In this document: one piece after another, positions 2,889 through 4,128 of the stretch
How the letters are laid out: each line of letters starts with the position of its first letter
Position numbering within the stretch: the first letter of the stretch is position 1
IMG/VR virus record: IMGVR_UViG_2690316115_000004
Length of the DNA stretch: 4,509 nt
Strand: one strand, 5' to 3'
Source of the DNA: a virus
Taxonomy: Duplodnaviria; Heunggongvirae; Uroviricota; Caudoviricetes
Made by a program: the position numbers and the translations under genes
Notes under the pieces: model-generated
Told to the model about the DNA's origin: nothing
The model's input: the letters and a program-made list of their open reading frames with translations, nothing else
Database searches by the model: none

Positions 2889-2964
2889 GGCCCTTTAGCT
2901 CAGTGGTGAGAGCGAGCGACTCATAATCGCCAGGTCGCTGGTTCAAATCCAGCAAGGGCCACCA
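2889..2964 (+). tRNA. ileZ: tRNA-Ile2 (anticodon CAU, lysidine type; formally also readable as Met), ileZ-like
   Basis: Manual cloverleaf: acceptor GGCCCTT/AAGGGCC, D-arm GCTC-AGTGGTGA-GAGC, anticodon loop CTCATAA (CAU), T-arm GCTGG-TTCAAAT-CCAGC, discriminator A and encoded CCA. 76 nt, closely resembling E. coli ileX as I recall it. Confidence 0.85.
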
Positions 2965-2965
2965 A

Positions 2966-3041
2966 CCGCCACTAGCCATCAGGAAAGAGCGTCAACCCTT
3001 TAAGTTGAGTGTGCGAGGTTCGAGTCCCCGGTGGTGGTCCA
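2966..3041 (+). tRNA. tRNA-like element in the argN slot, probably degenerate or a pseudo-tRNA (apparent anticodon UUU with C at position 33 and a weak D-stem)
   Basis: Exactly 76 nt between the flanking tRNAs. Acceptor CCGCCAC/GTGGTGG (one G-U), perfect anticodon stem TCAAC/GTTGA with loop CCTTTAA, T-arm CGAGG-TTCGAGT-CCCCG (one mismatch) and terminal TCCA. The D-stem has two mismatches and position 14 is not A. Confidence 0.4.
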
Positions 3042-3054
3042 TTATCGGTATTCT

Positions 3055-3128
3055 GCGTTGTTAGCTCAGCAGGACAGAGCAATTGCCTTCTAAGCAATCG
3101 GTCACTGGTTCGACTCCAGTACAACGCG
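3055..3128 (+). tRNA. argO: tRNA-Arg (anticodon UCU, reads AGA/AGG), argO-like; CCA not encoded
   Basis: Manual cloverleaf: acceptor GCGTTGT/ACAACGC, D-arm GCTC-AGCAGGACA-GAGC, anticodon stem ATTGC/GCAAT with loop CTTCTAA (UCU), T-arm ACTGG-TTCGACT-CCAGT, discriminator G followed by CTA rather than CCA. Confidence 0.85.
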
Positions 3129-3144
3129 CTACACTTATTTTCCC

Positions 3145-3168
3145 GGCTCGCTTTTGCGGGCCTTTTTT
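3145..3168 (+). terminator. Rho-independent terminator after the tRNA cluster (candidate tR')
   Basis: GGCTCGC (3145-3151), loop TTTT, GCGGGCC (3156-3162), a 7-bp stem with one U-G, followed by TTTTTT (3163-3168). Confidence 0.7.
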
Positions 3169-3211
3169 GTATCTGCGCCACGCCCGGCGCATACCAACCA
3201 CAGAGCCTTTC

Positions 3212-3221
3212 GGGGGGGGGG
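3212..3221. repeat. G10 homopolymer tract in the intergenic leader upstream of the TerB-like gene
   Basis: Direct read: C then ten consecutive G at 3212-3221. Long G runs are uncommon in enterobacterial DNA and are slippage-prone. Confidence 0.9.
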
Positions 3222-3303
3222 AGCTTACGGAGTGGTCAGTGTGACTTTCTCTGTGGGCAGATCGCTCCCGGGCGTTGGCTCACCCACCCAAAGGAACGTC
3301 ACG

Positions 3304-3736
3304 ATGTTTGGTATTTTGGGTAAAAAAAGCCCGCAGAGCGGCAACGGAAATTAAAAAGTTTGAAAAACGCGATCTGGCACAGGTGGTGATTAACGCCGCC
3401 TACCTGGTGGCCTGTGCAGATGGTGAATGTGAGGCTTCCTAGAAAGCGAAGATCGAACAGGTACTGCGTAATCAGCCTGCGCTGTACGCGTTTACGTCAG
3501 AAATTAATGCGATTAGCGCAACCATTATCGGTCAGCTGGATACGAACTTTAAAACTGGTCGTCGTGCGGCGTTACGTGAGATCGAGGATGTGAAACACGA
3601 TACGCGTGAAGCGGAAGATGTGCTGGATGTGGCGGTGGCCATTGCGGAGGCAGACGGCGAAATTGAGCCGGAAGAGCGCAAGGTGCTGGAAGAGATTGCC
3701 GGTGTTCTGGGTCTTCGTCTGGAGAATTACCTGTGA
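3304..3736 (+). pseudogene. TerB-like (tellurite-resistance TerB superfamily) gene, apparently disrupted by a +1 frameshift in an A7 run (3322-3328) and an in-frame TAG (3440-3442)
   Basis: AAGGA (3291-3295) sits 8 nt upstream of ATG 3304; this frame gives MFGILGKKSPQSGNGN then TAA at 3352-3354. The next frame from 3329 reads ARRAATEIKKFEKRDLAQVVINAAYLVACADGECEAS-TAG-KAKIEQVLRNQPALYAFTSEINAISATIIGQLDTNFKTGRRAALREIEDVKHDTREAEDVLDVAVAIAEADGEIEPEERKVLEEIAGVLGLRLENYL, ending TGA 3734-3736. The ADGE...E and AEADGEIEPEE segments look like the paired TerB motifs. Deleting one A restores a continuous frame from the ATG. Confidence 0.55.
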
Positions 3737-3900
3737 CGGTAAAACTGCGCCTGACTGTGGCTGCACTCCTGCTGTTTCTGGTGGTGATGGTGGATTTCAC
3801 CAGCAGAATCATGTCGGTGCTGGCGGATGGGGTGCTGGTCTGCGGCATTGTGGTATTGCTGTGGCCGGTGATAAAAAGAAACAGCCTGCATAATGCTTGA
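3733..3900 (+). CDS. Small hydrophobic protein (about 55 aa, two predicted transmembrane helices), function unknown
   Basis: GTG 3733 overlaps the TerB-like TGA (GTGA) with GGAGA at 3721-3725. Translation VTVKLRLTVAALLLFLVVMVDFTSRIMSVLADGVLVCGIVVLLWPVIKRNSLHNA, stop TGA 3898-3900. Internal ATGs at 3787 and 3811 are alternative starts. Below the 60-aa cutoff of the ORF track. Confidence 0.4.
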   Translation: MTVKLRLTVAALLLFLVVMVDFTSRIMSVLADGVLVCGIVVLLWPVIKRNSLHNA

Positions 3901-4101
3901 TTTTTTTGTTTGCTGTTTATTAAAAACACTTCTGCATGGTGAATCCCCCTGTGCGGTGGGGCAATCAGCAAGAAGGAATATGGGGTAATCGCGGATTCAG
4001 GTGCTGATACTGAATTCACCGGGAGGCACCCGGCACCATGCTTTGCCACAAAAGTGTTATTTCTGTTTTTCTCAAACTATCATCGTTATCCCTTTATTTT
4101 C

Positions 4102-4128
4102 GGCTGCGCATGGCGCGGCCTTTTTTTT
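4102..4128 (+). terminator. Rho-independent terminator upstream of the nanS-p-like gene
   Basis: GGCTGCGC (4102-4109), loop ATG, GCGCGGCC (4113-4120), an 8-bp stem with one U-G, followed by eight T (4121-4128). Confidence 0.75.

Follow-up and report, generated by a model that had tools for sequence, protein, structure and literature searches.

What is encoded by the short open reading frame (ORF) that follows a damaged TerB-like gene among the late genes of an Escherichia coli prophage, and is it still of use to its carrier? The window, that is the whole stretch of DNA analysed here (4,509 nucleotides of the Caudoviricetes virus record IMGVR_UViG_2690316115_000004), holds this ORF at positions 3733-3900. 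We are almost certain that it is tciB, a member of the DUF3927/TciB family. Comparison with its homologues indicates that tciB is a real gene under purifying selection, and by analogy with other TerB systems its product is probably an inner-membrane partner of the TerB-type protein TciA, whose gene lies immediately upstream. Given the lesions in that gene, the window most likely holds an orphan tciB, weakened and left over from a cassette in decay. The cassette and its immediate borders are composed as follows:

3145-3170, + strand: intrinsic-terminator-like hairpin with a T-run, 3' of the tRNA genes, the upstream boundary of the cassette
~3304-3736, + strand: tciA pseudogene of the TerB family (Pfam TerB, PHROG 632), with its stop overlapping the tciB start
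~3321-3327, + strand: A7 run inside tciA (+1 frameshift), A6 in intact alleles
3440-3442, + strand: TAG nonsense codon at tciA codon 46, GAG in intact alleles
3721-3724, + strand: Shine-Dalgarno-like GGAG, 8 nucleotides 5' of the tciB GTG
3733-3900, + strand: tciB, 55 codons, encoding a small hydrophobic DUF3927 protein, with a GTG start and a TGA stop
3905-4077, + strand: match to the small RNA (sRNA) STnc100 (Rfam RF02076)
4102-4128, + strand: second intrinsic-terminator-like hairpin with a T-run, 3' of tciB and STnc100 and 5' of the esterase gene

The GTG of tciB (3733-3735) overlaps the TGA of the TerB-like frame (3734-3736), forming a GTGA at 3733-3736, and its own TGA occupies 3898-3900. 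The GGAG in front of it doubles as Leu-Glu codons of the upstream gene and is also found in the allele of phage JLK-2012, with a weaker GGAT in the Fostie and Klebsiella alleles. The protein, MTVKLRLTVAALLLFLVVMVDFTSRIMSVLADGVLVCGIVVLLWPVIKRNSLHNA, has a grand average of hydropathy (GRAVY) of 1.39 and two hydrophobic segments, at residues ~5-20 and ~26/33-47 on the Kyte-Doolittle and Hessa scales, which are split by a polar DFTSR and accompanied by basic residues at both ends (K4 and R6; K48 and R49). An initial annotation of the locus, made from the letters alone, had described an ORF of roughly 55 codons overlapping the TerB-like stop, with a Shine-Dalgarno sequence of its own and two strongly hydrophobic segments, and each of these points is borne out. 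ORF length alone carries no significance here, the window containing 59 ORFs of at least 30 amino acids (aa), two of which overlap tciB (3606-3893 on the + strand and 3727-3891 on the - strand); we judge the frame to be real because of its conservation and its family matches.

The matches are with Pfam PF13064 (DUF3927; 62.6 bits against a gathering score of 25, E 3.3e-17), where TciB residues 3-51 align to profile positions 2-50 of 53, and, over the full length, with PHROG 1470, 'TciB-like inhibition of cell division or resistance to colicin' (E 5.6e-30). The NCBIfam and PADLOC profile libraries returned no match for TciB. The initial annotation was mistaken in calling the ORF unannotated: in DNA of 99.7-99.9% identity, RefSeq has a coding sequence at this very position, 'DUF3927 family protein' WP_000216649.1, which differs from the window protein by M40V alone, and 997 public contigs carry the exact window protein under the name 'DUF3927 family protein [Escherichia coli]'. 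TciB is also named in the records of phages 434, JLK-2012, 2B8, P1 and SJ46 and of N4-like phages. The names tciA, tciB and tciC originate in the P1 genome annotation, and tciABC were named by homology to TerB only (PMC10695390). What the gene is, which family it belongs to and that it pairs with a TerB gene can thus already be read in Pfam, PHROGs, RefSeq and the annotation of the P1 genome. The family is small, with 128 clusters at 50% identity (E <= 0.001) in a profile search of 1.84 billion representatives. Its genome matches belong to Enterobacterales, with Escherichia, Pseudescherichia, Enterobacter, Franconibacter, Buttiauxella, Pantoea and Rosenbergiella represented, apart from some few that derive from likely contaminated metagenome-assembled genomes.

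Next we considered whether the frame is under selection as a protein. A length of 50-55 aa is kept across 21 diverse homologues, along with a core of D-F-T-S-x-x-M-S-x-L-x-D-G-x-L-V ... P-x-x-K. The invariant columns of an 11-sequence alignment (D21, F22, L30, D32, G33, L35, V36, P45 and K48) are all present in the window protein, and the C-terminal tail is the most variable part. The median pairwise ratio of nonsynonymous to synonymous substitution (dN/dS) is 0.24, taken over 128 pairs with 0.1 < dS < 2, variable columns fall 43/26/49 by codon position, and the tciB frame is the only one free of stops in all of the 16 diverse homologues checked. The initial annotation had left room for a frame lacking conservation in related prophages, or for a region that is only a 3' untranslated region (UTR); the frame is open in 16/16 homologues, and with this conservation and a dN/dS of 0.24 the region is not merely a 3' UTR.

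One might nevertheless argue that the ORF is non-functional and that the conservation stems from a constraint on DNA or RNA, imposed by a 3' UTR or by the promoter of the STnc100 sRNA, considering that the STnc100 match begins 5 nucleotides after the tciB stop, that a -10-like CATAAT (3889-3894) lies within the last tciB codons and that the C-terminal tail of TciB is where most variation is found. We regard this as barely credible. In P1 and N4-like phages the protein is 50-60% identical with synonymous sites saturated, and the flanks there are without BLAST homology to the STnc100 region (no RNA search was made in them); moreover, the frame is uninterrupted in diverse homologues and the variable sites are distributed over the codon positions as given above. 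For the family, dN/dS and frame conservation refute the non-coding explanation.

The surroundings of tciB are conserved as well. Directly 5' of it lies a TerB-family gene of 141-149 codons, with stop and start overlapping (ATGA/GTGA) or abutting. We detected this adjacency in the phage-plasmid myovirus P1, in the virulent N4-like podoviruses Pollock and FSL SP-058, in the lambdoid phages JLK-2012 and Fostie, in Klebsiella phage 5 and in 15 of 20 Enterobacterales genome loci; overall, a full-length TerB gene directly precedes tciB in 21 of 27 diverse loci. The window tciB likewise stands directly 3' of a TerB-family frame, though that frame is a pseudogene. Apart from loci of the 434/2B8 type (see below), the exceptions are one locus with a 5'-truncated TerB gene, one without a TerB gene and, in E. 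albertii, two remnants in a degraded state. There is no conserved third gene: it is TciC (35 aa) in P1, an unrelated protein of ~110 aa in the N4-like phages and nothing consistent in the lambdoids. Neither TciC, nor the N4-like downstream gene, nor a 247-aa protein encoded by phage 434 upstream of TciB has a Pfam match, and none of them hints at a function. Among the TciA proteins, the JLK-like and P1-like types are ~41% identical.

In the window, Pfam TerB matches the C-terminal part of tciA, the gene also matches PHROG 632, and the intact reading frame expected of a functional tciAB cassette is absent. Compared with the intact tciA of JLK-2012, an extra A in the run at ~3321-3327 shifts the frame, which then stops at 3352-3354, and a change of GAG to TAG interrupts codon 46 (3440-3442). 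RefSeq flags tciA as 'pseudogene, internal stop' in 99.9%-identical DNA. With its +1 frameshift and TAG46, a gene earlier called possibly dead is dead outright. The A-run lesion is shared by 32 of the 82 close relatives typed, and by 24 of the 71 copies in the tciA-anchored sample described below. The A7/A6 frameshift recurs in many copies (L009-L189) with and without TAG46, and a -1 change a few bases 5' of the run is also seen. The A-run change could reflect a mutational hotspot, reversible slippage or, in part, homopolymer sequencing error.

How does tciB fare once tciA is lost? A first sample of 80 viral loci had been picked by TciB similarity and was therefore biased towards intact tciB; for this question it was replaced by a second sample, unbiased for tciB state, of viral contigs anchored on a 23-nucleotide string at the 3' end of tciA, in which both genes were readable in 71 copies. 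With tciA intact, tciB was broken in 0 of 28 copies; with tciA broken, by at least 5 types of lesion, it was broken in 11 of 43 (Fisher's exact test, p = 0.0025 per copy, the copies not being independent). These 11 trace back to ~4 events: W44stop occurs with two tciA backgrounds, and two frameshifts that differ from each other follow G33. Segregating tciB variants are 5 synonymous and 5 nonsynonymous where tciA is intact, and 1 synonymous and 6 nonsynonymous where it is broken, the latter including V34G and P45S at conserved positions. Viewed across these alleles, the pattern suggests that constraint on tciB is relaxed after tciA loss and that the pair decays as a unit.

Since the adjacency is conserved across three phage lifestyles and TerB domains recur at membranes, we propose that TciB acts with TciA. 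TciB would then serve as a membrane-embedded anchor or effector for the soluble TciA, the two forming a TerB-type module for membrane stress or membrane surveillance. TerB is itself membrane-associated, and TerB domains occur in the defence systems Bunzi, Shango and Dionysus; the Bunzi TerB protein has transmembrane (TM) helices, the one of Dionysus is paired with a 4-TM pore-forming effector, and in DjlA a TerB-like domain is tethered by a transmembrane helix. In the infected cell the module might protect the membrane, or exclude other phages or colicins. A role there, and not only in lysogenic conversion, is suggested by carriage in virulent N4-like phages, where the pair sits in the early/middle gene region, by transcription of tciB during P1vir infection (PMC8201110) and by the late-operon position in lambdoids. 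In P1, tciA, tciB and tciC were non-essential in a CRISPR interference screen (PMC10695390), as expected for an accessory module. Our confidence in any specific physiological role of TciB is low. A more far-reaching scenario, which we offer as rather unlikely in its particulars, is that TciA-TciB represents a minimal phage-borne TerB sensor with a two-segment membrane effector, active in lytic growth and at a low level in lysogens, which excludes competing phages or pore-forming colicins or stabilises the energised membrane, with TciB being partly active alone. Such partial activity would account for the retention of TciB in 434-type phages and in tciA-dead prophages.

Several observations weigh against the partnership. 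The co-decay signal comes down to ~4 independent tciB lesions and is a trend only at the level of events, the contrast of synonymous and nonsynonymous variants by tciA state is not significant (p = 0.30), and tciB is intact in 32 of the 43 copies with a dead tciA. Loci of the 434/2B8 type encode TciB without a TerB gene, having a different 5' segment and the 247-aa membrane protein instead. JLK-type TciA is found with both TciB types, congruent with shuffling between loci and no tight co-evolution; because TciA types occur with more than one TciB type, tciA and tciB appear to be exchanged independently by recombination. No genuine TerB-DUF3927 fusion was present among the 1.84 billion representatives; the longer matches P0129, P0168, P0171 and P0240 were rejected as chimeras or frameshift read-throughs. 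No PADLOC model matches TciB, and the TciA fragment is related only weakly to PDC-S48 (E 0.016); the literature yielded annotation-level mentions of tciB only, with no experiment found on any DUF3927 protein. Finally, AlphaFold2, run on a shallow 15-sequence alignment, drew a single continuous helix over residues 2-54 (pLDDT 90.6) and no hairpin. The 'two-helix' protein of the initial annotation is hence plausible by hydrophobicity but is not what this model depicts. A continuous helix of this kind is too long for one membrane span, and may stand for an unpacked hairpin or for a fold that depends on oligomerization.

Some of these observations speak for the main rival explanation, namely that TciB is an autonomous small membrane effector that does without TciA, and that the window copy is still fully functional. 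Possible roles would be superinfection exclusion, which the initial annotation had also raised, through a block of DNA entry by superinfecting phages, or resistance to pore-forming colicins or another modulation of the membrane. Phages of the 434/2B8 type do keep TciB without the upstream TerB gene, tciB has its own GGAG/GTG, it is intact in 32/43 tciA-broken copies and the exact allele is present on 997 contigs; in addition, genes of benefit to the lysogen are often found at the cargo site that separates Q from the lysis genes (general knowledge; Tree et al.). On the other hand, a TerB gene directly overlaps or abuts tciB in 21/27 diverse loci, all tciB-inactivating lesions were seen on tciA-dead backgrounds, V34G and P45S in tciA-dead copies hit conserved residues, and the literature reports no phenotype. 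We therefore consider an autonomous TciB possible, yet on balance doubtful.

The 434/2B8-type TciB is furthermore a mosaic. In phage 434 (locus L002, 2967-3125), homology to the window allele starts at DFTSR; the first 20 codons and all upstream DNA are unrelated, yet these 20 codons encode an in-frame hydrophobic helix. The arrangement suggests either that selection maintained two segments in the protein once recombination had taken place, or that the N-terminal part belongs to a diverged lineage.

The frequency of tciA-dead copies also bears on a further possibility, that TciB is a toxic membrane peptide, like a type I toxin or an abortive-infection effector, which TciA restrains. It is small and very hydrophobic (GRAVY 1.39), the Dionysus TerB protein accompanies a pore-forming membrane toxin, and parts of the R478 ter cluster are toxic when a protective region is missing, as Whelan 1997 is reported in a citing paper. 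A dead tciA next to an intact tciB is however common in complete genomes and viral contigs, a state that would be intolerable if tciB were expressed and TciA its antidote, which makes such an antidote unlikely. In addition, no known Rfam family lies opposite tciB on the minus strand (a novel antisense RNA is still conceivable), no PADLOC or NCBIfam toxin model matches, and translational coupling places TciB after TciA, opposite to the order usual at a type I locus. The toxin-like function entertained in the initial annotation accordingly fits poorly as that of a TciA-dependent toxin, and we hold it to be quite improbable.

The same annotation had raised a holin-like function, which the neighbourhood allows to be assessed. 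A holin, antiholin or pinholin-like protein of lysis timing would agree with the size of TciB, its two hydrophobic segments, which resemble those of class II holins, and its place after Q and before the lysis cassette; a holin or endolysin gene is within ~1 kb of tciB in Fostie and Klebsiella phage 5. Yet DUF3927 is the sole Pfam match at E <= 0.1, no holin family is matched and the PHROGs matches are only TciB-like. Near-identical prophages have a class II holin of their own ~3.2 kb downstream, past the esterase gene, as in locus L001, where a 1.85-kb esterase gene and the separate class II holin stand between tciB and the lysozyme gene. The pair is remote from the lysis genes in P1 and the N4-like phages, and P1 tciB is non-essential. 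A part in lysis is thus highly improbable, and partnership with TciA remains the explanation that we favour.

How far, then, is tciB still expressed in the window? The cassette is placed between terminators, and no consensus sigma-70 promoter was found between the 3145-3170 terminator and tciB (3163-3733). Where lambdoid late operons have their standard architecture, RNA polymerase passes terminators with the help of Q. Lying 3' of Q, of a tR'-like hairpin, of the tRNAs and of a second terminator, the cassette would be carried mainly on the Q-antiterminated late transcript in lytic growth; a promoter-like site at 2851-2879, ahead of the tRNAs, might allow some extra read-through in lysogens. 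The RNA fold around the tciB start is not significantly structured relative to shuffled sequence (z = -0.88) and, resembling shuffled sequence in this way, lends no support to a coupling-dependent occlusion of the start. With tciA translation ending at 3354, translational coupling is lost and tciB must rely on its own GGAG/GTG. Because this site remains and the fold is unstructured, while coupling is gone, we expect translation of tciB to be reduced, not zero.

Immediately behind the gene, the STnc100 match (RF02076, 3905-4077) scores 100.8 bits against a gathering score of 47 and starts 5 nucleotides after the tciB stop. A 2026 preprint describes STnc100 as related to the PasD sRNAs, whose place is directly 5' of the prophage sialate esterase gene; the match here is in the same position. 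The -10-like CATAAT at 3889-3894 is inside the last tciB codons, and the sRNA promoter may shape the variable C-terminal tail of TciB.

Taken as a whole, the window corresponds to the region of late regulation and cargo in a lambdoid prophage of pathogenic E. coli. DNA of 99.9% identity is present in chromosomes of O111:H8 and other E. coli that produce Shiga toxin (STEC), and more than 500 complete E. coli genomes hold at least 80% of the window. Its remaining features are:

586-1641: DUF968 gene
1642-2007: RusA
ending at 2693: Q82-type antiterminator Q
2754-2783: hairpin at the tR' position
2889-3129: tRNA genes
4215 onward: beginning of the DUF1737/SASA sialate esterase gene

At 2754-2790, ~60 nucleotides 3' of Q, a GC-rich hairpin of 13 bp precedes TTTTGTTGT; it has no Rfam family match. 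In Shiga toxin (Stx) phages, the corresponding place 3' of Q is taken by tR' and the short pR' transcript (StxS). Among the tRNA genes, ARAGORN calls a third, 'Lys-ttt', at 2966-3041 on the + strand, between tRNA-Met/Ile2(CAT) and tRNA-Arg(TCT). This call has no Rfam tRNA model match at E <= 0.1 and no RefSeq annotation, and probably represents a degenerate gene, the middle one of a three-tRNA cluster. Between the post-tRNA terminator and tciA, a poly-G tract (3212-3221) counts 10 G, and 12 G in the 99.9%-identical O111:H8 locus L109, making it a second length-variable homopolymer just 5' of the cassette. In the 99.7%-identical prophage copy L001 (NZ_CP027555, 1-609), the adhesin gene paa and the type I toxin hokD lie just 5' of the window region; with these two adjoining, the prophage backbone bears several cargo genes besides the tciAB remnant.

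The interest of the cassette extends beyond this copy. DUF3927/TciB occurs beside a TerB gene in temperate and virulent enterobacterial phages, and tciB is carried by many prophages of enterohaemorrhagic E. coli (EHEC), at the site that holds the Shiga toxin genes in Stx phages. TerB domains are now emerging in anti-phage systems of unknown mechanism, and a two-gene cassette of TerB and a membrane peptide would be about the simplest model available for TerB action at the membrane. The natural allele series of tciA-dead, tciB-intact and doubly dead copies provides ready-made controls.

Compared with known systems, the likeness to class II holins and pinholins (S21, Phage_holin_2_1) is one of format: these too are small, with two hydrophobic helices, and found in the late region of lambdoids, but TciB shares no sequence family with them, is followed by a separate true holin and has a non-lysis context in P1 and N4-like phages. 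The ter cluster of R478 (IncHI2; tellurite resistance, phage inhibition and colicin resistance), the source of the 'tci' name, similarly has a TerB-domain protein at the inner membrane beside an integral membrane protein. TciB is however no homologue of TerC or another Ter protein, the phage cassette has only 2-3 genes, and the tellurite, colicin and phage phenotypes belong to ter, to which tciAB is likened by TerB homology alone. Bunzi, Shango and Dionysus also combine a TerB-like protein with partners, membrane-spanning in Bunzi and Dionysus, and membrane surveillance has been proposed for them. They differ in these partners (a 4-TM pore-forming toxin, or a helicase/ATPase) and in being host-encoded, whereas TciAB is phage-borne, in virulent phages included, and TciB has no PADLOC match.

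Within the family itself the resemblance is closer. P1 TciB (P1_gp075) has ~50% identity over the full length (54 versus 55 aa) and shares both the D-F-T-S...D-G...P..K core and the place directly 3' of a TerB-family gene, overlapping or abutting. P1 differs by its intact tciA and by a third gene, tciC (35 aa, one hydrophobic segment), for which no counterpart was found in the lambdoid loci, the window itself not having been searched for one; its cassette is flanked by tRNA genes and ban and is not part of a Q-dependent late operon. WP_000216649.1, found in EHEC prophages, is one residue away from the window protein. JLK-2012, from E. coli O55:H7, has the same cassette at the same cargo site, in the order Q, tRNAs, tciA, tciB and esterase, at 91.8% DNA identity; it differs from the window in the C-terminal tail of its TciB and in its intact tciA, the gene that is doubly inactivated here.

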